DNA of 64,000 nucleotides, filler included, from Jimgerdemannia flammicorona (GCA_003990765.1; 3 parts of 3 records of this genome joined end to end with filler, not necessarily neighbours in it); one strand, 5' to 3'; counted from the whole stretch's first letter, positions 1 to 31,175 are shown. Notes: generated by a model from the sequence alone, not told the origin. Program-made: numbers and translations.

Positions 1-1329
1 TCCCACCTCAACACAAAAAAAAAAAAACTTTACCATGAGCATTTTAACCTTCTCAACCTTTCTTCTTCCTTCCTCGCTTGCGAGTCCCGCTCTGAGCCGG
101 CTCATCATGGGACTATCTGCGAGGGCGAGCCTCGAGTCTGGCGGAATGCCGTCATTGTACTTGCCCGTCAGGATCCCGCCCGCCAGTGGGGACCACACCG
201 TCGTACCCATCCCGAAGGTCGCAAATAGTGGCGCGTACTCCTTTTCGAACCGCTCGCGGTGGAACATATTGTACTGTGGTTGCTGGAAGGTGATGGAGAA
301 TAAAACAAAAATTTTCGTAGAAGTGAGTGAAGTGCGAATTGATTCAACTTCCTCTAGAGATGTGGACAAAATCATTGTCTGCCATTCCATCTCCACCCTC
401 CTACTATTTGCCTTCTCGATTCCCCATTCTCGATTCCCCCTCCACCACCTACCTCCATCAACGGCCCCATGAGCCCCAACCTCTGCGCGACAGTATGTGC
501 CATAGTAATCTGCTGAGCAGACCACTCGCTTGTTCCCCAATAGAATGCCATGCCGCGATCGATGACGAAGTTGAACGCACGCACGATTTCTTCCATGGGT
601 GTGTCTGGGTCGGGCCGATGCGCGTAAACGAGGTCGACATAGTCGAGCTGCAGCCGCTTCAGCGACGCCTGCAGGCCCTCGATGATGTGCTTGCGTGATA
701 GTCCGCGGTCATTCGGGCCCTTGCCACCCCAAAAAATCTTTGTACTGATCACGAGATCAGACCGCTTCCACCCGTTCTTTTGAATCGCTAGGCCCATGTC
801 AATTTCAGATTGGCCGCCTGGGGTGGAGACGAATGGTGTAAGCAAAAGGGTGCGTGGACGACGCTGATGGGTCGAAGCATCTCCGAAATTTTTAAGCCAT
901 CGCATGCATCGGTCCCATAGCCCTCCCCCACCATAGACACTCCCATAAAGATGTCTGATCAAAACTTACCCGCGTAACCTTCGGCCGTGTCAAAGAAATT
1001 AATGCCATGATCGAACGCAATCTTCATACACTCGGAGCACGTATCTGTGGGTCGGGGTAGGTTAGGAAAGTCAGCGTCCGAAAGGATGTATGCATCTCGC
1101 GGTCCTCCGAGCACAAAGCCTAGTCAGAACAGGCGTAGCACGGAATATTAACCTACGCCGACCTGGCCGCCTGTAGAACGAACGCCGGGAAGTGAGTCAG
1201 TGAAAGCTCTGTTATGTACGAATCTCACCATCGACTTGGTGGTGACTCACACGTACCATAAGTGATCCACCCACCCAGGGCCACAACAGACACCTTCAGC
1301 CCCGAGTCCCCCAAGAACCTATACTCCAT
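1..1329 (-). CDS. Aldo-keto reductase, voltage-gated K+ channel beta-subunit (AKR6)-like; multi-exon, 3' end runs off the window
   Basis: Manually spliced exons read [25 protein letters not shown] / GQVGV micro-exon / [16 protein letters not shown] / [13 protein letters not shown]...[13 protein letters not shown]...YWGTSEWS / [16 protein letters not shown]...[13 protein letters not shown]. Introns are GT-AG. The start could alternatively be the in-frame ATG at 1419. Confidence 0.9.
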
Positions 1330-5393: not shown

Positions 5394-6364
5394 CCTGGGA
5401 TAAGCTAGACGGAATGTCAAAAGGTCGTAATGACCTTTGGCATACACATGGTGTGTGTAAGTGCGCGAACTATTTCATGATATGTTTATAGGATATCTTT
5501 AGCTAGCGTACTGGCTGAACCCAGAACGAAGAGTGTCAACGGAGAGTCAATAAATTCTAAAATTATTGGATTAAAAAAAAAAAAAAAAAAAAAAAAAACG
5601 TTATTGCTTCTGTTCCGATAAATATAGTTTTGAACATATTCGCTGTATTTAAATAACAATATGCGATGTGTCAGGTTGAACCCATTAAGAACATGCTCTT
5701 TACAATATATTGGCGTAATTTTTCTTCCGGTAATCATAACAGAAACAGCAACAGCAACCATTGGCCACGCGCTAAGGCTGGAAGTAATTCTACTAATTAC
5801 ATAGTATGAAGAGCCTGTTGCAGCAAGAGGTCGCTAATTGCTGGATGAACGAGCAGGAAATATCATAAAGCAGTATATACATCGGGACTGTCCCAATGTT
5901 TGTTGTGTAGGCTTGGCAGAAAGTGGTTTGTGATGCAAAAGTGAGGGGTTTTTGCACGGTACGCTCGGGTTGGGCGTCTGGTTGATTGAGGTCGTCGTTC
6001 CGGTTTTGGGATGAATTGTTGTTGAATTCATGCAGCCGGTAAATAGTTACAATGGAATCGGGAGGAAACGATGTTTGTGCATCCGGGCCAGCCTTTATCA
6101 CTCATGCATGGAGACGGATATTAATCCTTCCTCTTGGTTTCATAATTCAGATGAGATGGTAGTATTTTGAAAATTTATACTCTTTAGTTACGGCGAGCGA
6201 GAAGTCTGATTCAGTATATCAAACTCGACAGAATTTGGTGTTCAAGTCAATATTACGAGTTTTTGTGAAGATAGTTAATAATTATTTGGTTGTAGTTAAA
6301 GGTCATTCCATTGGTTTCGAAAAATTACGTTTTCGTTTGCATTTTGTTTATTTTGTAGCCGAGT

Positions 6365-6422
<58 letters not shown>

Positions 6423-6465
6423 GTCTGAATGTCTAGACTATGTACGTATTTAAAGTGATGTGCAG

Positions 6466-7490
6466 CTACATTCTGTCGGCCAAAAAATCGATTTCAATCC
6501 TAACTTTGTCGCCGTCCTCGTTGAAAGCCTCTGCCGTCACCTGCGTGGAGCCAAAACTCAGATCCAGTGTAGCGGTCTTCTGGTGGTTATCAGGATCGGC
6601 ATTCTTGAGGACCTGCACGTTTTGCTGAACAATCTTGAATGCATTCTGAACTCCTTCCCTAGAGTTTTTTACGGGGATAACGATGCAATAGGCTTTACAG
6701 GCACTGGATTCGCAAAGCTCTATCACGTTCTTATTGCTGTCTTGGCCGCTTCCGGCCAATACCAGCATGAACCGAAAGTTTGGAATGCCTGGATTTAGTA
6801 TAGAATTCTTCACCTCTAAAAAAAGAGTGGACGAAGAATTTTCCACGCCGTCGGTGAAAACCATGAGGATGTTCTTGTATTGCTGGCGTTCAAGGGATTG
6901 AAGGAAAGCTCTTTGTCGGAAGATTCTAATACCATGTATAATGGCATCGAATAGGCTTGTCGAATCTCCAAAAATCTGCATGCCGTCCACACTGTATTTG
7001 AATACTGGGGAATATGGTTGCATATCCCTAAAGGGCAAGCACAAGTATATACAAGTATGATCAATGTCAACACCGCAATAAATAAATCACAATATTTTGT
7101 TTCACCAAGCATTCTTACCAGATTGTTATAACACTCTTGCTGAATTTTATCAAACCAACCTCATCAGCGGTATTAAGAATGTGACAGACATCTTTTATAC
7201 CATCTTTGCTTGCACTAAGCTTATCGCCATCATTCATGCTAGGGCTGGCGTCCTGGACGAACAGAAGCTTAACCGGAAGGGTCTCGTCTACACGCGAAAG
7301 TGGGACAGCTAAAGTTGCAGCCAATCTCATGGAGGGAACCATGTAAATTTCGTCATCACGATCAGTAGTGTAAAGTTCGAGTTTGGCGATATCTTGAGTT
7401 GTAAGGACGGGAAAAAACCTACATTAGCATGAGAAAAGGAATAATTTTTTATTGACATCTGGTGAAGACGGAAGCATGAGTGCGAAAATT

Positions 7491-7531
<41 letters not shown>

Positions 7532-9649
7532 CCAGCGTACACTGTCTGAATCAGCTCGTGAACCCCGACAGACTGCCCTCTTCTGACAATGGCATGGAAC
7601 AAATTGTCTGCATAATCCATTTGCGCTTCCTGCAATGTAATCACGTAACTGATTAATACCAAAATTATCGCAATTTATTAATTTGGGTAACTAAATACAA
7701 CCTCATTCCAATATTTTGCTGACTCGCCAAGTGGGTTTGTTGATGTCCATGGGCCAGAAGTTTTTACCCCGTAAGTAAGACGTGCGCAGCGGCTTGTAAT
7801 AAACCTAAAAGTTGAAGCAATGATTTCAGAAATTGTATACATAAAAAGCCTAATAGTCAATGGAATCGATTATCGTATATACCTTGTGTTAAGTCCACAA
7901 ATAACTGCTCCTTTGACAACCGCACTACCGGGGTCCACTGGACAAACCATTTCGATACGATCACCAAATTTTTCCTGTGCGCGCCGCCAAAGGTATTTGC
8001 TGGCCGAAAACCCCCCAACAAAGCACATTCTGTTTATCTTTGCATTGACATCCTTTCGTTTCATGGCAAGCCTTTTCTGACTCCTATCAAGATGTTTCTC
8101 AACGAGATCAAGTGCTTTGTCAACGATAGGGTCGAACATGTTGAGCATATCCGTTAGTGTAATGACCAAATTACTCCGCGTATCTTCCAAGTGCTGCTGG
8201 TCCATCTGATCGCAGAGCTTTCTTGGGATTTCCAAGCATTTCTCCGAATTTCTTCCGGAAAAACTTTCGGGTCCTTTGAACTCACGCTGCAAACATTGAA
8301 AGTGTTGTATTAGTATCAGTTTTTTTTTTTTTTAGCGAAATTGCAAAGCGTTTTTAACTTAGCAAATACAAATACGTAAACTTAACCTTGAGCTGTTCCC
8401 AAGCTTTCATTAACATAAACCATTCTGATTTATGTGTGTTCCGAAAATTCTGAACTACAGATGCACCACATCGACTCTCAACGAACTTCGCAAACTTGTC
8501 ATCAACGAATGTTGATCCGAAGGGGCCGCCAATACCTTCGACAATCTCTCGTAAAGATTCAGCGCCCGTATTATTATCTCTAAGTATTTCATGAGCAGTC
8601 TTTGGACAGGAAGATTATACAATAAGTCATCGTCACGGTGATCGTTCAACCCTGGCTCTGCCAACTAATTACTTACCAAATCAATCGTGCCACCACCGGC
8701 GTCGACAATAATGAAGGCGTCACCCGACTGCAGCATATTTTCGTTTGCTTTCTCACAGCACCACAGTGCAGCTGCTTCGGGCTCCAAAACAATATTAAGT
8801 CGAGATGAATCGTTTTGGGCCTCTTCAGGTACCTGCATTATAGGTCGGTAGTAAAATTTAACCAGGAATTGATCCAATGTTTGTACGCAGAGCATTGAAC
8901 ATCTATACTTACAATCCCAGCCAACACTACAGCCATTCTCATCTGTTGCTTAGCGTGTTCGCTCCACATTGCCGGCACGGTAAGATACCAAGCTATGGCT
9001 TCTGGAGTTATAGTGTCTCCATAACTCTTTTTGAGTTCCTCACAAAACACGCCATGGAGGCAGCGGAAATAATCGGCGATGATTTCCAAAACTGTATAAC
9101 CGGGTGGAAGTGGCGGCATTTGCCGAGAAACGGATTCGTCGAGATGCAGCTTGAATCTGCTGCAAAAATGCGACTGTTTGGATAGGCCATATGTGGGGAT
9201 ATTCTTGATGGCTGTTGGAAGCATAATTATTCAGTTAAACATTGCTGAGAGTGTGGAGACGATGAAGCTTGTAATCAAATGGATTACCTGAATACCCCCA
9301 ACTCTCCACGGAGGGAGTTATCGAAAAAAGCGTAGAACTATATTCGTATAGAATAGCCGTAAGATTCTTGCAATAAGGAACAAGCTGATCATCCCAGAGG
9401 TAATTGGCCTCGGGGATTCTGCCGCTGACGTGGACCTGCAAAAAAGAGCAAGCGAGATATAATACATCGAAATACACGGCAACGTTCAGTTGACTAAAAC
9501 CAATGGGCATAAGAGCGCAAAACCCCTCTTACCAACGCAAAGCCCGAATGGGTGGTTCCAAAATCGATAGCAGCTATTATCCTGGTGTTTGGGCCATGAG
9601 ATGGAATCCGCCTTTGCTGCGACGGAGAAATGGATGGGTTTGGGAGCAT
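6466..9649 (-). CDS. HSPA12-type atypical Hsp70 with an inserted von Willebrand factor A domain; 10 exons
   Basis: The spliced product has [84 protein letters not shown] and RLTYGV. It continues into a vWA domain ([22 protein letters not shown]) and then the HSPA12-like terminus [12 protein letters not shown]...KVRIEIDFL. All introns reconstruct as GT-AG with consistent phase. Confidence 0.88.
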
Positions 9650-10232
9650 TCCGAAACTTTTGGTTGAGTTTTATCACTTGGAAGCTTGGGGTACAGGATG
9701 TTTATATATTAGAGGACCCATCGATCAAATGTTGAATCTTTAGTCACTACTGATGTCATGCCTCTGATGAAACACGCAGCATTGTTTGTTCAATACAACG
9801 TCGGACTTCTGTTGTATTTTAGATTGACACGCCGAATGAAAACAACGCCAATTATTTCAAGAGTTAGATGTGAAGTGACAACGAAGGCACGTTCAACGAT
9901 GTCACAGAATCACGACGTTTTTATGCATTCATATAGAGGAAGGATGGGCGGTGATAATGCAGAAACAATCTGGAGGTTTCAGAACTTATATAACTTATTC
10001 TGATGTGCGCCTTGTTCTCAGAATGTGTCCCAGGCCTTTGAAACGCCGAGTAATCTTATCAATGCATGATCGTGAGTGACTTCTAGGTCAGAAACAAAAT
10101 TCCTTATACTTGAATATATAACATGCGCCATTTATTTCTGGTCTGAACTATATAATTGATTTGCATCACTAATCACTTCTCTGTCCAGCTGGCACTCTCA
10201 TTCCTCCCTAAGACAACTCGGCAGTCATCGAA

Positions 10233-12041
10233 ATGGTTAAGCTGCGGGGTAGACGCGAAGTCCTGAGCAACCAGGAAGGGTATCTCATTTCCCGGCCCGA
10301 ACAAGGGAGTTCTCGAGACGATGGAACGAACGAGTATACAATAAAGAAACAGCTAACGACGAAGAAAGACGATAACCTCGGCAGCAAAGCAAAAAAAGTA
10401 CAAACAACCACAACTGACGGGCACCATAATTTCAAGCAGAAGCGAAAGCAGCCAAAGCAAACATTCCGCGAACAACTCATGCACCAGAAAGAGACAATTT
10501 ACAACGAAGTTCTTGCCGATATGATGAACCTGAGAAAAGTGTTCGCGTCAGATAACAGAATATACAATTGGATTCGCTGCTGGGGTGGTTATTCAGACGA
10601 CACAGTCCGCGCATCGCAAATGCTGATGAAAGATGCAAGGCAAAAACTACTAGCATACGTGGCAAAGTTCAACGAAGGATGGGAGGCTGAGGAGAGAGAA
10701 CGAAAAAGGCTCGAAGAGAATTACGCCCAACTAGATAAAGAAACCAAGGACTACAGAAAAAAGTTCGACGATTTCCGGATGGAGCTGGAGGTGGGCACAG
10801 CTGAGATTAAAAAATTGGAGAGCGAGAACCGATCGCTCCAAAAGCAACGAAATGAAGTTATAGACAAATTGAACGAGCAGATATATGACAATGGGCAATT
10901 GGAAAAAACTGTTCAAAAGGAGATCGATACCCTCAAGACTAATAATCAAGTCCTCACCGACCAGGCTCACTGGATGAGCCAGAAATTGCTCGGCTACGAA
11001 ACAAAGGAGCTGAGGGATTCCAGATTTCGCGCCAGAGACTCGGGCGGCAAACCGAAGGGCATCTTCGATATGGAAGGCGTCAACCCGGAAAGCTTTGGCA
11101 GCACATGGTCGATAATCTACCAAACCATGCACAATATTGTAAGTCACATGTCAAAACTTGGTGGATTCAACAGTCAAATCATCCAAGAACTCCTCCATCA
11201 AGCGACGAAGGATTATACGACGGACATCACGATCAAGCCAGTCGATGAAATCCGGTTCGTGGAGCACTCGATCACCAGAGAGTTGATATCGATTTGGGGG
11301 GCCACCTCTATCCAGAATTTTGCGGTGCTCGATTTGGAACAAACATTACCCGACATTATCTTCGAGGAATTAGATCAGATAAATGCGTTTCTCTCATCGG
11401 AGATAACTGGGAAAGACAAAGATTCCGAGATGTTCGTGGCCTCGATTCGTATGAAGGCCGGCTTTGCTAACTTCCTTTTAAGCAAACTCTCAAAGCCAGA
11501 TGATTTGAGCAATGAATTCGACGGCCAGAGTTATAATCCATTCAGCTCAGTGGAACAGGGTCTGAGGGAACGCTTAACGCTATATTGCGAAGCTAAAATG
11601 ACGAGGATGTATCACCTTATGCTCTCTTTCGGTTCCGGCGCCGAGACGCAAAAGCAGATAATCATCGATTTTGCTCCAATGTTTCGTATGCTGACGTACG
11701 CGTCCGTCTACGGTCGCCTACAGATGGACGTACTGGGAGAAGGAAAAATGACCGTTTTCTTGCCTGGAACATTTCCTCACAACGGAGTCAGTGGCAAATC
11801 TGACAGCACGCAGGACCCAGCAATTTCTGCCACGAAGCCAAAATCGTCGTTGGTTCCGCTCGATGAAGCGCTGTACACGTCCGTGGGCTTTCTGCCATCG
11901 TCCGTCCCCATGTCAAAAGAACGACCATCTAAGTGGGCTCTTTTTACAGTTTTCCCCGGGGTTGCGTATATCGACGTAGACAAGAGCCAGTCGCGCGGAT
12001 TGACCGTGGTCGAGAAGTGTCGCGTGTATAGTTTGGAGTGA
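10233..12041 (+). CDS. Intronless 602-aa coiled-coil protein with a putative GrpE-like/GIL1-IRKI-like C-terminal beta domain
   Basis: Long uninterrupted ORF with heptad-rich, charged residues at ~130-255. C-terminal motifs are VPLDEALY and LFTVFPGVAY...VVEKCRVY. Confidence 0.8.
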   Translation: MVKLRGRREVLSNQEGYLISRPEQGSSRDDGTNEYTIKKQLTTKKDDNLGSKAKKVQTTTTDGHHNFKQKRKQPKQTFREQLMHQKETIYNEVLADMMNLRKVFASDNRIYNWIRCWGGYSDDTVRASQMLMKDARQKLLAYVAKFNEGWEAEERERKRLEENYAQLDKETKDYRKKFDDFRMELEVGTAEIKKLESENRSLQKQRNEVIDKLNEQIYDNGQLEKTVQKEIDTLKTNNQVLTDQAHWMSQKLLGYETKELRDSRFRARDSGGKPKGIFDMEGVNPESFGSTWSIIYQTMHNIVSHMSKLGGFNSQIIQELLHQATKDYTTDITIKPVDEIRFVEHSITRELISIWGATSIQNFAVLDLEQTLPDIIFEELDQINAFLSSEITGKDKDSEMFVASIRMKAGFANFLLSKLSKPDDLSNEFDGQSYNPFSSVEQGLRERLTLYCEAKMTRMYHLMLSFGSGAETQKQIIIDFAPMFRMLTYASVYGRLQMDVLGEGKMTVFLPGTFPHNGVSGKSDSTQDPAISATKPKSSLVPLDEALYTSVGFLPSSVPMSKERPSKWALFTVFPGVAYIDVDKSQSRGLTVVEKCRVYSLE

Positions 12042-13639: not shown

Positions 13640-15600
13640 TTTTATATTTCTGACTTATGTTTCCGACATATTGATCTGCCAAATAGTTTGTATATTTCAA
13701 ACCTATATATAATATCAGCTAGCTCTATCATTCCATGACTGAAAGGCATTTTATTACTCGAAATAATATAAATATTACTAACTTTAGTCAGTTTAAGTAT
13801 TTTGAAATAGGGCAAAGATATACTATATAGTTTTATTTATTTATTTAATCTTATATCTTATCTTCTTTAGAAGAATCTATACTTTTATCTATATTCTCAC
13901 TTCTATTATTATTGCTACTACTGTCTATATTTATAATTAAGATCTAATTTAATTTAAATTTAATTTAGTTTAAAAATTTAAAATAATTTTTAACTTGTTG
14001 AATTCATCTTATCTCTTAGTTTATAGAGTAGATGAATTTAAATAATATAAATTTATAAATAATAATATATATATGTTTTTCATTATAAATATAACTCAAT
14101 TTGTTCAAAAATAAATATTTATTTTTTTAGTAAAAGAAATTTTTCAAAGTTATTACAATATAATGAGTTATTATCTATTTGCTAAATTTAACTATATTAT
14201 AGAATAAGATATATATATTTTTAAAAAAATAAAATATAAATAAAATAAAAAATATAAATAAATTCAATATAATGAAAATTATTAAATTTAGATATATTTT
14301 AATTAAGAAAAGTTTGATAAAAATAATTTAATTTATTTAAAAATATTAATCTCTATAAATATCATAAATCTATATACTGATAGAATTAATATATTACAGA
14401 TGATCAAAATAACTACTAGTTCTAAGTTCTGAGTTTTTGTAAAAAAGTACTAAGTTCTAATTATCTATTGCAGCAATATAGTCTAAGTATCATTTTCAGA
14501 TTTTCATATAACAGAGGTACTATACTTATATTCTAAGTTGATTAGACTCAGAATTGTTAATAAGTTAAATCTGAGAGTTTTTGATAAGAATACTACTTTA
14601 TTCTTATATTTAGAGAAAGTAGAGCTAAGGTTACAATATACTCAATATAGAGGATATTTGTATAGATTTAAAGCTATAACTAAATATAGTATATTTGATA
14701 TATATATCTATAAATATTCTCTATACTAAGTATATTATAACCTCAGCTCTACTTTCTCTGAATATAAGAATAAAGTAATATTCTTATCACAAAGAACCCT
14801 CAGATCCAACTTATTAATAATTCTGAGTCTAATTAACTTAAAATATAAGTATAATCTTCTTATTAATATAAAAATCCAAAAGTAATATCTAGACTCTATC
14901 ACAATAGATAATTAAAATTTAGTGTTTTCTTAAAAACTCAAAACTTAGAGCTGATAGTCATTATTAATTATTTATAATATATTAATTCTATCAGTATAGT
15001 TTTATTACAGACTGTTTATTGGAAATTCTATTGAAATTTTCAGTAGCTTATTGATATATAATAAACTATTATAATAAACTTATTAATTTAAATTATAGGT
15101 AATTATAAATAGAAATTATAAATAATTATAAGATAAAAATAATAATTAATATAAATATATTGACTAAAAAATAAAATTATAGTAAATTAATTATATTTTA
15201 ATTTATATCATATTGTTTTATTTCTTTATCTAAAAAAAAAATATACCTTTTTTAAAAAAAAAAAAAAAAAAAAATTATAAAATTTTTACCAAAAATAGAA
15301 TTATTATATAAAAAATTATTGGTATTTTTTTTAAAAAAGCTATTATAATTTTAAAAGATATAAACTTTTAAAATCTTACCTCTAAATATAGGTACAAAAT
15401 AGATAAAGAGATATAGTTTATTATTATTTTATTTTATTAATTTCAAATATAATAAACTTTAATTTAATTTACTTTCATTTCTTTAAATAAAGCTTTATAA
15501 TTGATTTAAATCAACATATTTTTCATATTAAACAAATCAAATACTAACTGGACCAATCAAAATTCCATATGCAACAAGTATCCATTCAAATTTATAATCA
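13640..15600. other. Very AT-rich block of decayed repeat sequence
   Basis: Almost no CpG, no substantial ORFs, and an abrupt compositional boundary with the flanking genes. Confidence 0.75.
14373..14998. mobile_element. Foldback/MITE-like palindrome with ~290-bp inverted arms, TA-flanked
   Basis: The left end tatactgatagaattaatatatta pairs with the right end taatatattaattctatcagtata. Internal pairs include agactcagaatt/aattctgagtct and agaaagtagagct/agctctactttct. The spacer is ~40 bp near 14670-14705. Confidence 0.8.
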
Positions 15601-15992
15601 ACACCAAAAATAAATTTGGTCTGTTGTGGCGGTTTATTGTATTCGGAGTTTTGTTTCCGATGACAGGTCTTTCGCTCAAATTAATATTTCGTCCCCTTTC
15701 GCACAGGGTTTTGGCGACATGTTTTCATCGCCGCGCGTTGCAGCGGCACGTCACACGTCGCACGCCATGCTCGTTTGCTGAAACGGGAGGATGAAGTGAG
15801 CAGTCCATTGGATTTGTTGACATAAGTAAACATGTCATTTGGATCGCAACAGTCACGCGTGCATTTATGTCCATATTTTGGTCTTGTGATGGCCTTCGCG
15901 GGCGTGATGTTTGCATTTGCGCCGATTTAGGTTGACATGTAGCGTGGTGCACACTACATAAGACGATCGAACTCTGAATCGACAAAACTGTC

Positions 15993-18900
15993 ATGGGCGA
16001 CAGCGACATCAGAGTCGCGCATAATATTGGACGCGATTCGCCGAATGGCGACTCACCCTCGAAACCGTTCGAGATTTTACGGCATTCTCTCCCACGCACC
16101 TTCCTCCTTTCGGCAGATCACGTAATCCTGGGCGAAAAGCTAGGTTCCAGCGCGTTCTCCTCCGTCCACTGTGGGACTCTTAGAGGCACCACTGTCGCCG
16201 TGAAGCGGATGCCGGTATTCAAGGCCAGCTCCGAGAAGGCGAGCAAAATTGCGCTGAATGAACTGAAGCTGCTCCTCCGCCTCCGGCACCACAACTTTGT
16301 CATCCAGCTCATCGGATACTACCTGTCCGACACAGCGATCTGCATTGTAATGTCGTACGCAGAGAACGGCGACCTCCAGCGGTACCTACAGGCTGGGAAG
16401 TTGGAGGGGAATTGGGCTAGGAAGGTATGGAAAACTGGCTGGGAAATGATGAGACTTTTTGCCCATTGTATATCTGGCTGACTTGCCTCCTTTTTTTTTG
16501 GCTTGAAAGGCCCAGATTTGCAAGGATATCGCCAAGGCGGCGGATTCAGTTCATAAAGAACACATTCTTCATGGCGTTTTGAACTGTTCGAACATCTTAT
16601 TGGATCGTCTTCTGACACCAAAGGTACGACCACATTAGCCTCGATCAATATTATTGCGTGCTTAGACGATAAACCAACATAGCGCACTTTGACATTGCCC
16701 TTTTCATTATCCTTTTCCCGTTTCCATTGCTTAGCTTACCGACTTCAGTGTTAGCAGAAGTGGCTCTTCGATTGATAGAGGCTCTGATCTTGGCAGCAGC
16801 TTCCGATACATTGCACCAGAGCGTTTGATCAAATCCAGCAAAGGAATTCCTCACAAAGAAGCTCTTTTGAGCGACATCTATTCGTACGCTTACGTTGTGT
16901 GGGAAGTTGCAACCGACGGGCTGCTGCCGTACAACAATATTAAGTGCTACAGTTCAATGCTTACAGTCAAAATCAACACCGGCGAACAGCTTCAGTTCAT
17001 CGGAGACTTTCCCGAAGAAACCCCTCAAGTCTTTCGTGACACCGTTAAGCAGTGTTTAGCGTTCGATCCGTTTTTTCGCCCATCGCTCTCTTCGGTGCGA
17101 GATGCCTTCGACAATTTCATCGTCATCGCACCGGCGCCCATGGACCTTCCATTCACCGTTTGTGACGACACCCCGAGATCACTCCTATCGCCAACTTTTA
17201 ACAATTCTGAAATTTCCGACTTGCGCGCAGATGTTGGAGACGATAAGATCAACGCACTCTCCGAACCGCAGAAGGAGCTCTTCGAGATCGCAATGCATTT
17301 ATACGAAGACGGCAAGTTCACAAGTGCCATTGAGCGATTCCAGAGTCCTACATTATTCTGGGTTACTCTCGCGCAGCGCATGGTCGTGCACTGTCATAAA
17401 GCCATCGGCAAGAACCCGTCAGAGGTCTTCCAGGCCTTCAAGGGATTGGCGGAACGATCCGATGCCAGAGGGCAGTTCTGTCTTGCCTGGTGCTACGACC
17501 ACCGTTACGGAACTCAGCAGGATACTAAGTTGGCCTTTCGGTGGTACTCGTCGTCTATGAGGGCGGGGAACCTTGCGGCGGCGGCTGTTTTACGGGATAT
17601 GAAGTGGATCGAAAACCTGTACGACGTCGTCGTTCAATGGTCTACCGACGCTTCGGTGTTTGATTTTCTGCGGGAGCTCTTCAAGTCTGACGATTCCAGA
17701 ACATTTGCAATCACGGTCTTAAAATGTGCTAGGGAAGGAGATGTACGTGCTCGATATATCTATGTAATTGCGTATTACTCGGGAAGTCTGCTACACCATG
17801 TCGACGAGCATGGCAGGATTTATTCAGAATTAGATGACAAGTTTCTTATCTCAGGTGGCGAATCTTTCACGATAGTCGTCGAACTCAGCATCTACGGAAA
17901 CGAGATGGCACAAAGCGAAGTCGAGAGGCGCATTGAAACAGCAGAATCCGATTCAAACGCCGGCATCAACTTCTCGGAGAGCTTTCGGCTCCTGTTTGAG
18001 GCGGCCAAGAAAGAGAACTCGGAATCACCGTTCTGTCAGCGCCTAATCGCATTATGTTACGAGCTCGGCGTCGGTGTCGAAAAGGATGTCTCAAAATCCC
18101 TTGCATTTAATTCAGCCGCAGCGAACGCCGGAGACGTTCGTGCGCAGTACAAACAGTTCCTTCAGTACCAGCTTGGCGAGGGCACGGAAGCGCACCCAGA
18201 GTTGGCCTTCACTTGGGGTCTGAGTGCAGCCGACACGGGACGTCTCGGCGGTCAGCCTAGACTCGGCGAATTGCATTACAACAGCATAGGCGCCACACAA
18301 TCCATCAACTTGTTCTCCACAGCAGCTCTTGCGAAAGCAATGTACTGTCTCGGCCGCGCTCATTTTTATGGCAGAGGCGCAAATCTAGACGAGCGAGCGG
18401 CATGTCGTTGGTTCAGCAGGGCGGCAAATGCAGGGAACGCGGACGCACTGTGGTGGGCGGGCCTCTGCCACCTGCACGGGCACGGCACGGCGACGGATCC
18501 CCAGGCTGCGTACGCATTTTTCCTGAAGGCTGCAGACGAGGGGCACGCGTGGGCCATGTACTACGTTGGAGAGGAGTACATTGAAGGCAACTATCTCGGA
18601 CGGGACCTCGTCAAGGCGAAGGAGTACATGGCGAAGGCGGCCGATGGCGATATCAACGATGCGATAATGGCCTTGCGCAGGCCCCCGCTGGCCGAGCCGG
18701 CAGCCGAGCCGGCAGGCGAAGAGGCGTCCGAGCCGGCGTCGAACGACCCCTGGCAAGTCTTACAGAAACCCAACGAGCCGATGCCCAACGAGCCGATGCC
18801 CAACGAGCTGACGCCCGACGAGCCGATGCCCAACGAGCCGATGCCCGACGAGCCGATACCCGACGAGCCGATCTATCCCGACGAGTCGATGATCGCGTTG

Positions 18901-21626: not shown

Positions 21627-22099
21627 CAGGACATGAGTGTGTCCGCAGGACATGAGTGTGTCCTCAGGACACAGGTAAACAATCCTGATCTGGTGTCTTG
21701 GCTAATTATAAGTGTGGCGGGCATGAGTAACTATGATACACTGGAAGTCACATCATGCTGAGTAAGTATGCTATTTGTTCGCGTCATCTGGCTAGGTTAT
21801 AATTCAGGTGGTACGTTTTTGGTCTGTTACACTATATATATCTGAGCAAGAGTTGCCCTAACCAAGAATCACTGAGATCAAAGATGAAGATGATAATGGT
21901 GAATTCTCCAATGACAAAGGATCTTCTATGAAGGATAAAAAAATACAAAAGTGCTCCAATAGATGCTGAGAGATGCATTCAGAATTAGGAAGTTCTTGGT
22001 ATATACCAGCAAGCTCTTGATGATAGTAATATCAAGATTATGTGAGCTATGTCAAAGTATATGAATATACATATATTGCGACATCTAGTGAGTCAAATA

Positions 22100-24170
22100 T
22101 ATATAACAAAGCTATAAGCAATACAGACAATACGATATGGGAATGCATGATGGATGAGGAATATGATTTACTCATCAGAAATATTATCTGGGACCTGGTG
22201 CCTCTTCCACCAAACTGTTAAGTAATTAGATCCAAGTAGATATATAGAATAAAGCACAATACTAATAACAATGTAGAGCAGTATAAAGCTCATTTTGTTG
22301 CAAAGAGTTATTAGTAGGATTATGACATAGACTGTGATGAGACATTTTCACTAATATTCAAACTTATTTTACTTAGAATACTCCTTATAATCAGTATGAT
22401 ATATAACCTTGAAATCCATCAAATAAATATCAAGATAGTATTTGTAAATAGTGATATAGACATCAAATTATACATCTATCAACTACAAGGATATGAACTA
22501 TATGATAGTCTAAGTGGTAACCTTATCATAAACAGTGTAGCTATGAAATAAAAGAATTGATAAATATCTCCTTAACAATAGATTTATATATTGCAAAAGC
22601 AGATAATTTTATATATCCTATATTATAATAATAATATAGTTTTTATTGGTATTTGGAAAGATGATATCATTATTATTGCTAGCAAGAACAGGCTTAATAG
22701 AGTAAAGGAAACTCTATGCTGAGAATTCAAGATAACTAATATAGTTTATATATCCTTCTTTTTGGGGATATCAATTATATATAATAGAAATATATATATT
22801 ATATACCTCTTATAAGAACATATACCAAAGCTATCCTCAAATACTTCAGTATAAGTGAATATAAACTAGTCAATACTTCAATAAATACTTCTATTAAATT
22901 AAGGAAACCTAATACTATACTTAAGGATAATAATAATATATCTACCAAAAATAGTATCAAAGACAATGTTAAAAATATTTCCTATTAGCAAGCAGTTGAC
23001 TCTCTCATATATCTTATACTAGAAATGAGATCTGATATATAATATGTCAAGAATAAGATAGTACAGTACTTGATAATTCACATTAGAGTACTATTAAGAG
23101 AATTTTCTGATACTTAAAGAGATCAGCATACTATATACTTACATTGGGATAGTAACATTAAATTAAGTAAGAAAAATAACAAGGGCAATGGTAACTGGCT
23201 ATCTGGTATATATGATACTGATTGGGCTGGAGACTTAGATGACTATTAATCTATGACTAGATATCTCTTCTACTTTGATAACTAAGAATCTGGCATATTA
23301 TAGCAAATATATAAGTAGAGTTCTGTAGCAACATCATCAATATAGGTAGAGTACTAGATGTTATTAATGGCAACAAAGAAAGCTATTTGACTCTATGAGC
23401 TTTTATAAGAGCTCAGCTTTACTCAGAGGAACCCTAAACTGATCAGACAAGACAACTAATCTATGATAGTACTTACTAAGAATCTAGAACATTATAGTAG
23501 AATGAAACATATTAACCTATAGTATCATTTTATTTACAAATGTGTAGAAAATAGTACAATATACTTAGAATATATTCCCAAAGAGTATATGATTGTAGAC
23601 ATATTGACCAAAGCTCTTCTAAAGCCAAAATTTAAGCAATATGCTAAAGAAATGAGACTTACAAACTATATACTAGTATTTGGTTAACTACAAGATAATT
23701 TTCAGATGATCCAAAGCCTCTCATATTATCTATACATCCAACCTCATCTATGAGAGGATTACATATATTAAATTCTTCATATTTTTCATTTATAGATATT
23801 TTTAGATATATTTTGGAATACTTTTCAATTCACAAAATTTTCTACATTAGTCGAGACCTTTATTATTAGTCTTTTACTGTATTCTTTATCTATTTTCATA
23901 CTTATAAGTAGGGAATTTTGACCTTCTGCAGTCATCTAGATAGTATTTCATTGATTATATTTAGTTTACTCTAGTTTGCTTCTATTTTAATTTGTATTCT
24001 TTTTGGGTTATATATATATCTCATTAAGTAGGAGTGTTAGGATGGTAACTCAATATACCAGTATATAATCTTATGCTATTCTATCAGATTTAAGGCATTC
24101 ATTAGCCATGCAAGAAATATATAATATACGTACATAACTTCAATAAAATTGCCCTCCCTTTACAACAACA
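22100..24170 (+). mobile_element. Degenerate Ty1/Copia LTR retrotransposon (RT-RNase H, PPT, probable short 3' LTR 24035-24170)
   Basis: Decayed motifs include WDLVPLPP, YKA.FVAK, DETFS, LEIHQ, WKDDIII, TDWAG, SVATSS, MKHI and DILTKAL. A purine tract aagtaggag precedes TGTTAG...aataaa...CAACA. Confidence 0.8.
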
Positions 24171-24724
24171 TTTTTATGAACAGTTGTACTATTTCTGGCA
24201 CTATTGCTATAGTAGTTAATGTATTAAATTAGGCCTTTTTGCTGAGGTAATTGATAAAGATGATGATTGCATCTCTTCCCTTCTTAGTTTTTAGCAACTG
24301 GATGATAAAGTCTATTCCAATATTATTCAAATTTCAGATGAAAATTAGTAGCAGTTATAGAGTATCAACTAGTACCTAGTTGCTAGGTTTGTATCTTTAG
24401 CAGATATTACAGGCTGCAATATAGTTCTTAATATTAGAAGCTATTTTGGATCAATAGAAGTCTTTGGCAATATATTGGTATATCTTAGAAAGAGAGTACA
24501 ACTGGATTGAGTACTCTGAGAAAGAGTATAAGAGAGGCAGCATCAGAAAGATCTGTTGGTAAATCTGAGTTAAAAAGTAGTAGAGAAGGGTACTGCTGAG
24601 AGAGTTGGATCAAAGGCTAGTACTTACTTTCACCATCCTTTCTCCAGTAACATTCAGGTTATACAAACTTCAAGTAACTCTTAAGTTATCATTTTTGGAG
24701 AAAAGATATGTATAAGTAATTAGT

Positions 24725-25100
24725 ACTTTCAAATAAATTAAATTAATTCAAATCAAATCAAATTGAGGGTGATTCAAATCAAATTAAATTGGGGATTTTT
24801 AAATTTGAATGAAGTTTGAATTGAATCAAATTCAAATTGAATTGAGGGTCTGATTTGAATCTTATTTTTCAAAATATAATAACTTGACATAAATATGTCC
24901 TAATTTAATGATCTTCAGCTTGTTCAATTTTCCTTATACATATAGTGAAATCTTATATGCTGAAGATAATTAAATTTGGATATGTTTTCATTGAGTTATT
25001 ACATTTTGAATAAAAGGATCCAAATTGAATTTTGAATTGAATTAGACTTTTGATTTGATTTGAATTAAATTGAATTGGATTTTTGATTTGATTTGTTAGA
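24725..25100. repeat. AT-rich non-autonomous element inserted in the 5' end of LINE B; related copy at ~57350-57520
   Basis: ttcaaatc-type and gatttgaa-type motifs occur in inverted arrangement. 24975-25020 matches the reverse complement of 57352-57397. Confidence 0.6.
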
Positions 25101-25278
25101 AGCACTACTAGTATTATAGCATCTGTTGAGTATTCTGAGATAAATATTAGGCAGGGTGGCCCTAGTACATTTGAGTAACAGTATGTGGAGAGGAGCAATA
25201 GCTTGGGGGGAAGCATGAGGGGCTTGCTGGCAGAAGGACATAGAAGGAGAGGGGGCAGTGTTAGAGGACAGGAGACAG

Positions 25279-28200
25279 CAGAACTAGTCTCTCATCTTTC
25301 TCCAGTAACATTCAGGTTACACAATCTTTTGGCAACACTTTCGACATAGTTTCTGGTGACAAGCTACTAGTATCATGACAACCAACAAGCATCCTGGGGT
25401 GCATACTAGGCAGAGTGGCCCTAGAGCATTTGAATGGTAGCAAGTAGGGAGAGACCTGGGCTTGGGGGGAAGTATGAGGGGTCTGCTGGCGGGAGGACAT
25501 GGTGGAGGAGGGGGCAGAGCTGGAGGTCAAGGGTCTGGCAGAGTGAGCTTTGCAGAGAAGGTGAAGGGGAGTCAACAGGGAGCTGGACTGGAGAGCTGGC
25601 TGAGGGGGGGGAAGGTGCCAGTGAGGGCTACCAGACAGCAACCTCATGAGGGTACCTCTCTGGAGGGCCATAGAAGTGGAGCTGAGGGGGTAGCAGCTGA
25701 GGTGGGGACTGCTGATAGGGGTGTGATGGGTGATCTGGAAAAAAATCTAGATGGGACTATTGATGGTGAGCCAAGCAGTGGGATGGGCGTGAGGCCTGGG
25801 GACCTGACAGATGGTGTAATGGGACTGGCAGTGGCTCTGTTACTCAAGAAGTCGATCTTGGAATTTGTAGTCACAATGTATTTCTGGGGCTTAGCAGTGA
25901 TGGCAAAAATGGTTCTGGGGCTAATTGCAAAGCAGATGAATGGGGCAGTATCTGTTAAGTTCCTGAAGGGTCTGAAAGGGGTGGAGGTGGGATTTGAGGA
26001 GGCTGGGCCACTGGAGGAGGCTTTGAAGGCTGGGATGAAAGTTGGCAAGGTATGCATACTGATGGTAAGATGCCTGTGGTGAGACCCAAGAGTAGTACAG
26101 CTTCTGGTGAAGGGAGTTCCCACTGTTACTGCTGTAGAGACGAGGAAGAGAGTTGAGGAGATTATGGCAGAGTATGGGAAGGTAGTTGATATTGGGTTCA
26201 GAGTGTGAGAAGGGACCTCCCTCTAGACAGGAGATGTTGATGTCAGGATTCGGCTGGCTGGGCAGGAGGCTACTGAGAAGGCTTGGGACTGGCCCTCGGT
26301 GATGGTGTGGGGGGCCATCTTGTGTAAGGTGATGAGAGTAAAGGGGAGCAAGGAGTAGGAGAAGAATTTGCTGGAAGTACTGGAGGAGTTGAGTAGGGCA
26401 GTTGAGAGGAGGGCAAAAGCATGGAAGACATTCGAAGCAGCGACACATCTTGAGGTGGTCAGAGGAAGGCGAGTCTGCATCAACAAGGAGGTATGGGAGA
26501 GGTCCCAAGGGCGCAGAAGGCAGAGGGAATTGTTGGCGAAAATGGGGGCAGAGGTGATGAGGAAGGCAAGCGATAGTGCAACTGCTGGAGGTGCTGAGGT
26601 GAGTGTCTAGGCTGCTAGTAGTGGATGGAATGAGGAGGGGGGGCAGGTGGAGGCCATGAAGATGCCAAGCAAGAATCTATACAAAGATGGCACACTGGAG
26701 GTTTGGGAGAAAACCTGAGAGGATTCACCTTCACCCTCTCCTCTTATCAGAAGGGGTCCAGTGGTGAAAGGTAGAGTGATGGAGGATGTGCCAATGCATG
26801 GTGCTCAGCAGGTGCACTTTAGAGTTCCAAATGTTGAGAAGGGGGGATTGGTAGAGGCGACTGGGGAAGAGGAATTAGTGGATGTCCTGGAGGAGAGATG
26901 GAATGAGTCAGCGAGTGTGGGGGCTGATACTACGATGTTGGATGGAGAGAGGCCAGCGACCCCAGGAGGGAAGGAGGTGGGAAACTTGCTCTGGGTATGC
27001 TGGATGATGAACAACTTGGCAGCAGAAGAGCTGAGGGAAGTCAACCTCTGAGTGATGAGTGATGAGCATTGGGTAAGGATCCTGCAAGGAGATGGAGTGG
27101 TGGCAGTATTGAAGGTAGAAATTCTGGCGGTATACTTAGAGGAGGAGGGGTATGAAGTAGATAAGGAGAGGGAAGCTGCTCTGGCAGTTGTAGCAGGTGA
27201 GCAGGCTGCCCACTGTTGGACTAAGATGCATGGGATGCAGCTCTGGCAGGAGGCTTGTTTGGAGTACTGCAAGGAGTTTGAGGAAAAGGAGGATGGGGAG
27301 ATGGCAGAAATCCTGACTGAATTGGAGGCTAAGAGGACCAAGGAAGCAGAAGCTATTGCTGAGTGCAACCTGGATAGAGTACAGGAGGAAGTGGACATGG
27401 AGCAGTAGAGGATATATCTGAAACTATATAATTTCTCTTATGAATAGTACAACTAACATTTTTTCTTTGAACATGAATGAGTTATGTGGTGCTTATCAAC
27501 ATAAGAACATTTTTACTTAGCTGAAGGGATTGGAGGCTGATCTCTTCCTCTTGCAGGATGTCAGGTGTAAGGATGACTTAGATAGGCTGGTTTGGATGAA
27601 GGAGTGGGGAGGTGAGGCAGTTTGGAAGGGCAAGGTTGGAATTCTGGTATGGAAGGGCAGAGGGGAGATATAGGATTTGCAAAGCTGGGAGGATAGATTG
27701 GTCTGGGGAGAGTAGATATGTGCAGGTTAGGAGCTAGTCATGGTGGGCCCCTGTTACTGCTCTGCAGTATGGGGTGAGCGGGTGAATTGGGTGACAGGCC
27801 TATAGGAGAGTGGGATTCTTGTAGAGGTTGGGGTAGATGTGCTTGGTGGGGACTTCAATATGGTCCAAGACATATTGAGGGATAGAACTAATGGGGGACG
27901 AGGTGCTGTGGGGCAGAGTGGAGGACTGGTGGCATGGGAGGAAGTGGAAAGACTTAGTGCTCTGGTGGATGTGAGTAGGGAATGTTGGGGGAATAGGAGG
28001 GTGTACATGCACTGGGCCGGGGGCCTGGGGATGAGGATTGATTGGATTCTGACAGCCAGCTGCTGGGGCCTGGATGTGTGGAAGTCGCTGGAGGTGGAAT
28101 AGTGTCCTTGGTCAGATCATTGGGGGCTTTTGGGGCAGGGACATTTTGGGGGGAGTGGGGATGGACCTGGACATTGGCATCTCAATTCCTCCCTACTAGA

Positions 28201-31175
28201 TGATACGATCCAGTTGGTAAATGGGTCGAAGTCATTCAAATATAGGTGGAGTGTTGGAGGCAGGGAGGTGTTGCAGTTGATACTCAGTAGAGGAGGTTGA
28301 AGGAGATGGCCAGGGCCTTCTGGAGTGAGGCTGGTATGGAGGTGGGGAGACAGAGGAGGCGGTGGGTGCAGTGGGCATTGTGTAGATTATCTAGACTCTT
28401 GGAGGACTGGGCAAGACTGGCGACATTGGAGGGAGAGGGGGACTGGTATTTGGTAAGGTTACAAATAGAGGTGGCTGAACTACAACAGGTGCTGCAGAAT
28501 GAGGAAGAGGCAAGGGTCCAGGGTCTGGCAGCACAGCTTCATTGGCAGGGGCTGGAGGAAGGAGAGTAGCCCTTGAAGTTTCTTACAAGGGCCCTTCAGG
28601 CGAGAAGGGTGCAGCAAAGGTGGGAGGGGGTGCTTAATGCTGATGGATCATTGGTGCATGGGGTCAAGACATTCTTGGATTGTTAAAGGAGCATTGGAGT
28701 GGATTGTGGAGTGAGGAGGAGGGTTGGGCAGGTGCGGAGGACATTGATCAAGCTTTGGAGAATTGGTACCCTACCCGAGCAGCTGGGTTGGATGACTTAG
28801 TACTGCCAGTGCTAGAGGAGGAGATCCATCTGGTTCTTGCCATGACAACCTTGGGTACGGCACCAGGAGAGGATGGTCTGCCCTGGGACTTCTGGAAAAG
28901 GATGGTGGGGGTCTCTGGAATAGTGGGAGAGATAATAGCACTGTATAATTAGATTCTACAGATGGGGAGATGGGTGGGAGAACAGGACCTAGGGTTGGTG
29001 ACATTGCTTTATAAGAACAAAGGAAGCCGAGAGGACTGGAAGAACTGGAGGCCAATTATACTACTGGATATGGACAGAAAGTTGGTTACCAAAGTGGTGG
29101 TCGCAAGGCTGCAAAAGATGGTCCAGCAAGTCTTGGGTGAGGAGCAGTGGGGCTTTGTTGGAGGCTGGCTCATCAGGGATGGAACAGCATGGGTATATGG
29201 CATTATTGAAGGGGCATGAGCCAGTGGTCTAGATGGGCATCTGGTCTTTTTGGACCAGGAGAAGGCCTATGACTGAGTGTGATGGGTCTGGTTGGCAAAA
29301 GTTTTGGACAGGATTGGAGTCCTGTGACAGTTCAGGACTGCCATGGTCAGCCTACTGGAAGGGAGTAGGGCAGCACTCATGTGTAATGGACATAGAGGGG
29401 TAGCATTTCTCCTGGTTAGGGGGGTGCCTCAGGGGGACCCACTGTCTCCCATTTTGTATACTTTATCTCTGGAGCCCTTCATGGACAGAATCAGGTGGAA
29501 GATAGTGGGGCTCTCTGTCTTTGGCATTGGGTAGAAAGTAGGGGCATTTGCAGATGACATGGTGGTCAGTCTGGGATCAGTTGCGGATGTTGAGGAGCTC
29601 AAGGAGACAGTGGAGTGGTATGAGGTGAACTCTGGGGCTAGGCTTAATTGGCATAAGTGCAAAACAATGGTGTTAGGCAATGGTCTAGTAGGCAGGGAGA
29701 TTATTGGTAATTGTCCCTGCTGGCAAGGCAGTATGGTATTTGGGTATCTATCTGTCAGTATATGGGTCAGTTCTGCCCAGACTGTGGTGGGAGCAGCAGG
29801 TTGGCATTTGGGAGGAGGCCCTGCAGAGCTGGGGTGGCTGTCAATTGTCTCTGGCAGGATGCATTTCAATTCTGAATGTCTATTGGCTGCCGAAGGTGTG
29901 GTATCTGGCTTATCATCTGGACATCCCAGCTTGGGTGGTGAAGCAATTGATGAAGCTGGCCAAGGGGTAGATCTGGGGTGAAAGGTGGAGTCAGATCAAC
30001 TGGGAGGTCTTGTCTTTACCAGTGGCAAGTGGGGGACTTAGGCTGGTCGACTTTCCTAAGAGGCAGCACTGCTTGAGAGCTTGGTGGCTGAAGAGAGCAG
30101 TGGAGTTGAGAGGGGGTGGTTGGGTTCCCCTAGTGCAGAAAGTCTGAGAGATGAGGTCCTCTCTGAGAGGTTCGACGGGTGATCTCCTAGTGCTTGTGGG
30201 CCTTCAGAACTCTGGACAATTATGGTACAAGGGCTACTGGTGGGGAGTGGCAGAGGGGGCTCACCGCATTGGGATTAGGTGACAGAGAAATAAAGGGGAG
30301 GAGGCTTGGGACCCAGCAAAGTGGCGATGGGACTAACTGTTACTAGGTGGCATTTCCTTACTTGGGTTTGACATTAGTGATGGGATCGAATGCCAACAGA
30401 GACCAGGCCAGGATCTGTGGCCTAGCAGTTGGCAGGGTATAGGAATAGGTGAGGAGTAGGACTGGTATAGTATATGGGCCTGGAGTGCCAAGGTGAGGGG
30501 TAGTTGCTGCTGAAGTACTGGGTGGTCAGGTGGCGTGTGCTGAGGCAAAATGTCATGCTCAACTTCTGCTCTGGTCACCTTATCGAGGGAGGCTGCTTTG
30601 ACTGTGAAGAGTGTTATAATGTAGGGCAGGAAGGGGGATATGTACAGATGCCTGAACATTGGCTAGGGGAGTGTGAGGTACTTAGTACCTTTTGGCAGAA
30701 CATTGGGGATCATCTGGGAGTAGTGTGCAGGAGAGCTGATGTGTGGGGGCATTGGGAGGATTTAAGGAGTAGACTGGAGGGGGGGGTGGGGAAGGAATGG
30801 CTGACATTAGGGTGGGCTTTGGCCATTTGGGTGGGGCTGGCCAGTCACTGGCTATTTGTTTTTGAGGATGGGAGGAAACTTGGCTCCGAGGTCAGGCTGA
30901 TGAGGTAGTGTAGCCTTATGGAAGACACCTTGATGGGCTGATGGATGGGTTGGGGGTTAAAGGGGGGTCGAAGGCATTATTTGATAGAACAAATCTATAG
31001 GCAGAGTGGAGGGAGGGTTGGGGTAGTGGGTGCGAAAGTTGGCTTTGTTCGTATAAGTAGGAGGAGTGGTACTCCTATGGGAATTGGGTAGTGTGAGGGG
31101 ATACTGTAAAAGTATTAATAGATGGGTAATAAATGGCAGAGTCCACGTAACTATAAAAAAAAAAAAAAAAAAAAA
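25279..31175 (+). mobile_element. LINE copy A, full length (~5.9 kb), L1/Tx1-like, inactivated
   Basis: APE endonuclease motifs LGGDFN and SDH, RT motifs KNWRPI, GVPQGDPLSP and AFADD, and a poly(A) tail at 31155-31175. A perfect 16-bp TSD agaggacaggagacag lies at 25263-25278 and 31176-31191. Confidence 0.92.

Follow-up and report, generated by a model that had tools for sequence, protein, structure and literature searches.

A vWA domain nested in the C-terminal beta-sandwich of an HSPA12-type Hsp70 of Endogonales fungi

HSPA12-type Hsp70 proteins form a poorly understood group found widely in animals, fungi, and bacteria, with expansions in molluscs and Glomeromycota. The subject here is one fungal member of this group, encoded at 6466-9649 on the minus strand of a 64,000-nucleotide stretch of Jimgerdemannia flammicorona DNA (GCA_003990765.1; three parts of three records joined end to end with filler), called the window below. 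HSPA12A/HSPA12B-type proteins have in common with it the sequence family, the ATPase motifs, and a lid-less C-terminal beta-domain ending FGxTE...F, but the compact members examined are without the von Willebrand factor A (vWA) domain of about 200 residues that the Endogonales proteins carry. Comparison with canonical Hsp70 (PDB 4b9q, 5nro, 7kru, 6asy, 5e84) shows that the structure model of P0002, the orthologue from Endogone sp., superposes from the nucleotide-binding domain (NBD) to the end of the beta part of the substrate-binding domain (SBD-beta), at about 15-19% identity. The DnaK and BiP chains have no counterpart of the vWA insert, whereas the lid and the C-terminal tail that follow their sandwich are absent from the fungal protein.

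In integrin beta subunits, the hybrid domain, a beta-sandwich, carries an inserted vWA-like beta-I domain, and ligand binding is sent on as a domain swing. The fungal protein likewise has a vWA fold with a metal-ion-dependent adhesion site (MIDAS) nested in a loop of a beta-sandwich, and integrin I domains are among the matches of its vWA model. Integrins, however, are extracellular and have no ATPase; the fungal protein has no sequence relation to them beyond the vWA fold, and coupling in the fungal protein is conjectural. Pairs of MoxR AAA+ ATPases with vWA co-chaperones (PMC7159879) likewise join an ATP-driven, chaperone-like engine to a peptide-binding vWA domain. Their engine is of the AAA+ type and the vWA domain is a separate gene, whereas the fungal protein has an Hsp70-fold engine and a nested vWA domain in a single polypeptide. 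A first-pass annotation, made from the sequence of the window, had drawn this MoxR comparison, which holds as an analogy only: there is no AAA+ domain in the protein or in the flanking frames scanned, over about 16 kb surrounding the gene. The papers searched yielded no account of a vWA domain nested in an Hsp70 or HSPA12 protein; the family proteins themselves are already public as hypothetical proteins.

From three-frame translation and the positions of GT-AG borders, a single gene of ten exons encoding 796 aa was reconstructed. The reading frame is open across all ten exons with canonical splice sites, and the introns are 72-122 nt long. Use of an alternative exon 7 donor at 7699, 3 nt further on, adds one valine, as in the NCBI model, and gives 797 aa. 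The interval that was originally singled out, 6466-7420, is the 3' end of this gene, and all the peptide strings quoted for it (LELYTTD... and others) are found in the translation. The features of the gene are as follows.

6466..9649, minus strand: whole gene, from the GT-AG model and translation; stop codon 6468-6466
9649-9533, 9435-9288, 9211-8913, 8832-8677, 8599-8387, minus strand: exons 1-5, GT-AG model
8286-7883, 7804-7702, 7629-7541, 7418-7119, 7027-6466, minus strand: exons 6-10, GT-AG model
7883..9649, minus strand: Hsp70/actin-fold NBD, exons 1-6, about aa 20-445; motifs conserved with the HSPA12-like family
7274..7804, minus strand: inter-domain linker and first five SBD-beta-like strands, in exons 7, 8, and the start of exon 9, about aa 446-558
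6577..7273, minus strand: nested vWA domain, about aa 559-760 (7273-7119 plus 7027-6577), with intron 9 inside
7238..7252, minus strand: MIDAS DxSxS, with D566 at 7252-7250, S568 at 7246-7244, and S570 at 7240-7238; kept in 7 of 7 covering family sequences
6958..6960, minus strand: MIDAS threonine T633; retained in 9 of the 10 aligned sequences that have a residue at this place
6850..6852, minus strand: MIDAS aspartate D669 (FTDGVEN); TDG kept in 8 of 8 covering family sequences
6469..6576, minus strand: closing three beta strands of the host domain, resumed after the vWA domain, aa 761-796, with the C-terminal FGxTE motif
7419..7540, minus strand: intron 8, 122 nt, GTACGC...ATGTAG; holds a 38-nt homopolymer run
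7028..7118, minus strand: intron 9, 91 nt, GTAAGA...CTTTAG; inside the vWA-coding region and skipped by the contig from run X1

Homopolymer runs occur at 6367-6421 (about 55 nt of A on the gene strand, 45 nt past the stop codon), at 7492-7529 (38 nt of T, within intron 8), and further downstream at about 5580-5605 (T).

The gene is real and transcribed. Two public runs, X1 and X2, contain part of it, both taken to be RNA by guess; contigs were compared over 6430-7465, a range set in advance to avoid the long homopolymer runs, with exon 8 reached through a 30-letter end. One spliced contig of 2418 nt from run X1 covers 6447-7026, skips 91 nt, and covers 7118-7418, and the borders of the gap read CT..AC on the plus strand, equal to GT..AG on the gene strand. 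Beyond 7418 the contig carries 30 unaligned letters, which read as the end of exon 8 in reverse complement, while its other end stops at 6447, shortly before the homopolymer run of about 55 nt. The length of the contig is accounted for by the full spliced mRNA, which requires 2391 nt of coding sequence plus short ends. Both junctions predicted by the first-pass annotation, 7541/7418 and 7119/7028, are therefore used in this transcript contig, except that exon 10 starts at 7027 rather than 7028. No contig from run X2 aligned on 6430-7465. Over the 3' exons, five differences are listed between the X1 contig and the window, of which two alter the protein (V671G and V785F) and three are silent.

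Because the X1 contig spans both junctions, the vWA domain is whole in the transcript, and the NCBI gene model is contradicted. A search for longer proteins with exon 10 gave a single match, P0001, with 100% identity over only 27% of the query. P0001 is the 667-aa 'hypothetical protein BC938DRAFT_472784' of Jimgerdemannia flammicorona; it equals the ten-exon model over exons 1-9 through ...SVITIW and then jumps to EGVQNAF..., which corresponds to a splice from 7119 to about 6656 (intron 7118 to about 6657), and it ends ...GDK-DSATK by way of an extra 3' intron across the homopolymer run. The deposited model thereby loses the C-terminal half of the vWA domain and the last strand of the protein, and the present analysis corrects it.

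The host protein is an atypical HSPA12-type Hsp70, made up of an actin-fold ATPase and a lid-less SBD-beta-like sandwich. Of 7999 candidates scored in a search with P0001, 750 were relatives at E<=1e-3, including Mucoromycota and chytrid proteins named 'actin-like ATPase domain-containing', mollusc proteins named 'heat shock 70 kDa protein 12A/B-like', and cyanobacterial 'Hsp70 family proteins' of about 576 aa (for example P0023 at 2.0e-71). E-values go down to 1e-161 within Endogonales and lie at 1e-60 to 1e-88 for chytrid, Glomeromycota, mollusc HSPA12-like, and cyanobacterial members; relatives bearing the HSPA12 name include P0030 ('heat shock 70 kDa protein 12B-like', 3.2e-69) and P0084 ('Heat shock 70 kDa protein 12A', 2.5e-52). 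The nucleotide-binding motifs (DxGT, DxGGGT, GG, and EPxAA, here LEPEAAAL) are intact and aligned with those of the family. From the Hsp70 literature, we take DxGT, DxGGGT, and GG to be the phosphate-1, phosphate-2, and adenosine motifs. The segment encoded by exons 7-9 (about aa 446-558) ends ...LELYTTD... and matches the family profile up to position 525 of 561. An alpha-helical lid is absent, as the protein ends four residues past the last strand motif and no helix follows strand 769-773 of P0002. The window protein has no signal peptide. P0002 reaches only 14.7 bits against Pfam HSP70, compared with a cut-off of 20.6, and a partial family label exists in Pfam PF27033, named DUF8340 in the ESM Atlas. 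Most of the ~1000-aa relatives, which come from molluscs, Rhizophagus, and JGI records, are tandem duplications of the whole HSPA12-like unit in one protein (P0005, P0007, P0016, P0018, P0025, P0030, P0038, and P0045), the first copy often being without the C-terminal domain; two long relatives bear a C-terminal SH3 domain.

That the insert is a complete vWA domain with MIDAS residues, as first proposed from the sequence, is borne out: all five residues are intact in the window protein and conserved in the family. The one exception at T633 is P0121, whose deposited model leaves the family alignment from that point. Pfam VWA covers residues 552-717 of the orthologue P0002 with 46.6 bits (cut-off 23.8), and the paralogue fragment P0125 is likewise above the cut-off at 43.9 bits; the eight exons of the window gene other than 9 and 10 gave nothing meaningful in Pfam. 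In models of these two relatives, rather than of the window protein, the vWA domain consists of six strands with flanking helices. The P0125 model, which comprises the vWA domain and the tail, has a predicted local distance difference test score (pLDDT) of 83.3, and in Foldseek it matched 392 PDB chains at E<=0.001, led by ITIH1 (6fpz, E 1.5e-8), Rpn10 (2x5n, 5.1e-8), and integrin I domains. Near the end of the domain (6700-6740, aa about 713-724), a C-x4-C-x3-C motif is conserved, with its last two cysteines in 8 of 8 covering sequences, and distant vWA relatives show a related 'LC...HC' consensus. The motif could be a metal or redox site.

Several comparisons show that the vWA domain is nested within the host domain rather than appended to it. 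Positions 7-525 of a 561-position profile, made from 69 compact members of 540-600 aa, match aa 21-558 of the window protein, while the last 51 aa match positions 519-558 of the same profile (10.2 bits, E 9.7e-6 at Z=1; the best of 1000 shuffled controls was 2.4 bits). Since the body ends at about profile position 525 and the tail resumes at 519-558, the vWA domain was inserted. In an alignment of 14 sequences, compact members run strand-FGxTE-strand-strand-end; directly ahead of the strand leading into FGxTE, the window protein and P0002 contain about 200 residues more. A vWA insert of this size was absent from every compact member examined (about 540-600 aa), whether fungal, animal, or bacterial, and the 80 bacterial HSPA12-like loci all match P0002 no further than residue 578. 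Among 121 relatives, unmatched sequence after profile position ~520 was found only in the Endogonales group (P0001, P0002, P0004, and P0121). The proposal that the vWA domain occupies a loop of the C-terminal beta-domain and that the final ~36 aa complete that domain thus agrees with the alignments, the AlphaFold model, and the ranges of the structural superpositions; the further suggestion that other domains might be swapped into the same loop does not, there being no other insertion at this place in those 121 relatives. One loop of the HSPA12-type C-terminal sandwich evidently tolerates a whole folded domain.

The structure of the full-length architecture was modelled on P0002, which was folded by AlphaFold with a 120-row alignment (pLDDT 88.8, predicted template modelling score 0.80). 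In this model the NBD extends to about residue 432 and is followed by a linker strand and five strands between 445 and 545 (445-453, 481-491, 496-507, 516-524, and 537-545), the vWA domain at 550-744, and three tail strands (746-752, 757-763, and 769-773; pLDDT 82-89). The linkers are about 4 aa before the vWA domain and about 1-8 aa after it. Foldseek ranked full-length DnaK and BiP highest (E about 1e-19), the majority as ATP-bound or related docked forms. Superposition with VIA-align on ATP-state DnaK and BiP aligned 431-445 residues (Z 28-30, root-mean-square deviation (rmsd) 4.1-6.1), with model ranges of 16-20..777-780 against chain ends at ~504-505 for DnaK and 527-532 for BiP; for example, model residues 20..777 align with DnaK 2..504/505, a range that spans the vWA domain. 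NBD-only chains aligned with model 19..434 over 320-336 residues, Hsp70 NBD structures giving Z 28-30 and rmsd 3.1-4.0, and undocked Hsp70 states (2v7y, 5obu, 5obv) gave an rmsd of about 21.

The ~110 additional aligned residues, together with a last aligned residue that lies in the tail, at model residue 774-780, show that the interrupted domain is SBD-beta-like and that the tail completes the sandwich. The original description of the host domain as a homologue of the substrate-binding domain is therefore reasonable, as the superposition on DnaK and BiP runs through SBD-beta, ~110 residues beyond NBD-only chains. The C-terminal domain is modelled as docked on the NBD in the manner of ATP-state DnaK, and the insert, placed between the fifth and sixth strands of the model, would be the equivalent of DnaK loop L5,6. 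A complex prediction between P0002 1-547 and 745-783, representing strand complementation, scored 0.54 (0.53, 0.54, 0.54) against 0.00 for the best control, a pass rated weak because it is <=0.60, where 5 of 78 solved complexes and all 4 passing mismatches also scored, and one judged by a threshold calibrated on microbes when one partner here is a short peptide. Contacts were reproduced between runs to 85% or more, with a partner pLDDT of 64 or higher.

The same design is found in a small family of diverged paralogues in Endogonales. P0002 from Endogone sp., 783 aa long and 48% identical, is independently annotated and shows the complete architecture. Eight or more additional paralogues or fragments, counted from protein databases, share the design, all the named ones being from Endogonales, and retain the MIDAS residues. 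An exhaustive HMMER search with exon 10 gave 40 matches at E<=1e-3. Six cluster representatives (P0122-P0127), at 36-49% identity, span the vWA half and the tail strands, and two of these (P0124 and P0126) also include the sandwich strands preceding the vWA domain. Where the source of a family member is named, it is Endogone sp. or one of two strains of J. flammicorona; the others come from metagenome or run assemblies. The other 33 of the 40 matches are ordinary vWA proteins, of which 16 were scanned, the named ones being eukaryotic; the nearest vWA relatives outside the family carry zf-CCCH (P0128 and P0152), alpha-kinase (P0145), or U-box (P0146) domains. With the vWA-plus-tail part of P0002 as query, a word-based search of 2419 candidates recovered P0002 and P0121 only. 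The known distribution of the design is so far a single order of fungi that are hard to culture. Several of the database relatives are fragments, and the deposited P0002 model lacks about 25 aa of the NBD that are present in all relatives and contains two brief additional stretches, probably through minor errors of annotation; the sole low-confidence internal segment of its structure model, 283-291, is located at the NBD gap.

The main caveat to the uniqueness of the design comes from the ESM Atlas, which lists clusters of bacterial 'Hsp70 family protein' from Bacillota, Actinomycetota, and Myxococcota in which Pfam HSP70 and VWA occur together; each cluster has 56-270 members, protein lengths are 676-751 aa, and the feature scores of 0.91-0.93 are rated as leads. 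These share with the fungal protein the two domain families and a similar size, and the domain pair may therefore not be unique to Endogonales. Single-chain bacterial Hsp70-vWA proteins were sought in several ways. A plasmid tblastn search gave 12 records, none matching both parts; none was found at the 80 HSPA12-like loci; VWA_4 family searches of 3 and then 201 genomes, with 8 frames scanned, gave none; and an HSP70 family search of 121 genomes gave four long frames to scan, none with a vWA domain. The 12 candidate frames scanned came from Actinomycetota and one other genome. One candidate, L089, was rejected when its comparison with PDB sequences gave no Hsp70 match.

Taken together, the data suggest that the vWA domain is a partner-binding head coupled to the ATPase, a reading that, with its close to certain architecture counted in, we consider moderately probable. 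The vWA domain would act in partner or client recognition, a metal ion binding an acidic side chain of the protein ligand, and ligand binding and the nucleotide cycle would influence each other because both ends of the vWA domain are fixed in the sandwich, which itself touches the ATPase domain. Such coupling would be akin to that of the integrin beta-I domain in its hybrid domain, or of vWA co-chaperones with MoxR ATPases. As there is no signal peptide, action would be in the cytosol. The intact ATPase motifs and the invariant MIDAS suggest, at the level of conserved residues, that both activities are probably used, and the short linkers and docked sandwich of the model make mechanical coupling of the vWA domain to the ATPase plausible. 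A more far-reaching version, which we judge distinctly unlikely, is that Endogonales have turned the client-binding sandwich of Hsp70 into an intracellular integrin-like switch, in which the affinity of the vWA domain is set by the nucleotide state and vice versa, and in which paralogues have diversified to recognise different partners, possibly non-self or symbiosis-related. If true, this would be the first Hsp70 in which substrate recognition is handed to a nested metal-dependent adhesion domain.

Several points weigh against the coupled-head reading or the evidence beneath it. The ligand, the metal dependence, and the allosteric coupling are all things that we infer. The window vWA was scored as two exon pieces matching complementary halves of the profiles (PF00092 and PF13519), and each piece alone is below its Pfam cut-off: exon 9 matches VWA_2 positions 1-49 with 24.6 bits (E 4e-5) against a cut-off of 27, and exon 10 aligns to VWA positions 67-155 with 20.8 bits (E 4.8e-4) against 23.8. 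P0001 has no match to Pfam HSP70 (PF00012) at E<=0.1 and no solved relative by sequence among PDB sequences, both of which point to a divergent HSPA12 branch rather than a canonical Hsp70. The structural evidence comes from P0002, a 48%-identical protein whose deposited model is without about 25 aa of the NBD, and the assignment to loop L5,6 was made by strand order, since the structural alignments report range ends only. The RNA status of run X1 is a guess, though a contig lacking introns has no easy explanation other than RNA, and the five differences between that contig and the window are too small a sample to show selection.

The main rival, unlikely in our view, is that the vWA domain is a passive passenger, that is, a tether or oligomerisation module that places the ATPase without any allosteric link between MIDAS and nucleotide, the loop being merely tolerant of a domain with adjacent ends. 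vWA domains are nested in host loops of many proteins, their N and C termini being adjacent, and this habit favours a passenger, as does the joining of the nearest outside vWA relatives to unrelated modules (zf-CCCH, alpha-kinase, U-box), the pattern of a portable binding module. The very short linkers and the host domain modelled as docked make a mechanically inert arrangement less likely. A different explanation would carry further the earlier analogy with the integrated domains of immune receptors: the family would be a fungal non-self or conflict sensor with diversifying paralogues, the nested vWA domain serving as bait or sensor and the Hsp70-like ATPase as switch. The occurrence of several diverged paralogues (36-49% identity) in one fungal order would fit this, as would the expansion of HSPA12-like genes, and their tandem duplication within single proteins, in Glomeromycota and molluscs. 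Circumstantial precedent comes from bacterial conflict systems that use vWA or Hsp70 parts: vWA domains with MoxR, and Hsp70 proteins with GTPases, are described from predicted conflict systems of bacteria (PMC7159879), and Hsp70-like NBD/SBD proteins and TerY-like vWA domains are each reported from CoCoNuT subtypes (PMC11090510). However, Pfam scans found no effector, death-fold, NACHT/NB-ARC, or repeat domain in the protein, nor any domain of the nucleotide-binding leucine-rich repeat receptor type; PADLOC, whose library is prokaryotic only, assigned no family to any of three proteins (P0002, P0023, and P0125) at E<=0.001; and the neighbours (aldo/keto reductase, coiled-coil protein, kinase) are unremarkable, with nothing pointing to immunity. 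The immune-receptor analogy, like the ligand-sensing role that the first-pass annotation gave the vWA domain, has no direct support from these results, and the sensor explanation is highly unlikely.

It could also be supposed that the gene is an artefact or is decaying, either through a mis-joined model or through a vWA fragment that landed in an HSPA12-like pseudogene. The 667-aa NCBI model, with its incomplete vWA domain and different end, and the fragmentary state of several database relatives could be cited in support. Against this stand a frame open over ten exons with canonical splice sites, a spliced X1 contig that uses exactly these junctions, the same full architecture in the independently annotated P0002, and the conservation of MIDAS and ATPase motifs across paralogues along with a confident P0002 model; such an origin is extremely improbable and close to refuted. 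The gene represents a natural domain-insertion experiment in the HSPA12 branch, and the MIDAS site offers a testable handle on partner recognition by that branch, although restriction to one hard-to-culture order limits the immediate reach.

Three further genes or frames were identified around the Hsp70-vWA gene.

1-965, minus strand: aldo/keto reductase, at least two exons, neighbour gene
10212-12041, plus strand: 609-aa frame with a central coiled coil, head-to-head with the Hsp70-vWA gene
15978-16481, plus strand: protein kinase fragment, neighbour gene

The 609-aa frame matched no Pfam family at E<=0.001 and gave only coiled-coil noise at E<=10; the ESM Atlas groups it with fungal hypothetical proteins. 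A likeness to GrpE was rejected because the structural rows of the Atlas were weak and under the bar. Also rejected was the idea that the frame is the counterpart of the coiled-coil genes that follow cyanobacterial HSPA12-like genes (hhalign probability 0.5%), and comparison of this neighbour gave no support for a conserved partner gene of the Hsp70-vWA protein.

The scan around bacterial HSPA12-like genes covered 32 of the 48 flanking frames at 14 loci. An AAA+ ATPase (AAA plus AAA_lid_6) and a further frame precede the HSPA12-like gene at three of the five cyanobacterial loci scanned (L002, L005, and L012), the frame being 219 aa long at L002, 369 aa at L005, and 355 aa at L012. At four of these five loci (L001, L005, L007, and L012), and at L017 from Chloroflexota, a frame of 534-603 aa follows the HSPA12-like gene, with no family or only coiled-coil matches; downstream at L002 are frames of 195-196 aa and a second partial Hsp70-like frame. 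The bacterial neighbourhood may be a conserved multi-gene system.

Elsewhere in the window, about 20 kb at ~24000-44000 show an excess of G over C on the plus strand, with a GC skew of +0.26 to +0.52 in every 2-kb window and A slightly exceeding T in most of them. No more than four open frames of at least 200 aa overlap this region, its sole tandem array is a 40-nt unit repeated three times, and a sample at 30000-30900 is G-rich and non-repetitive. AT-rich islands are located at 14001-16000 (GC 22%) and 22001-24000 (GC 27%), the rest of the window having 32-55% GC.

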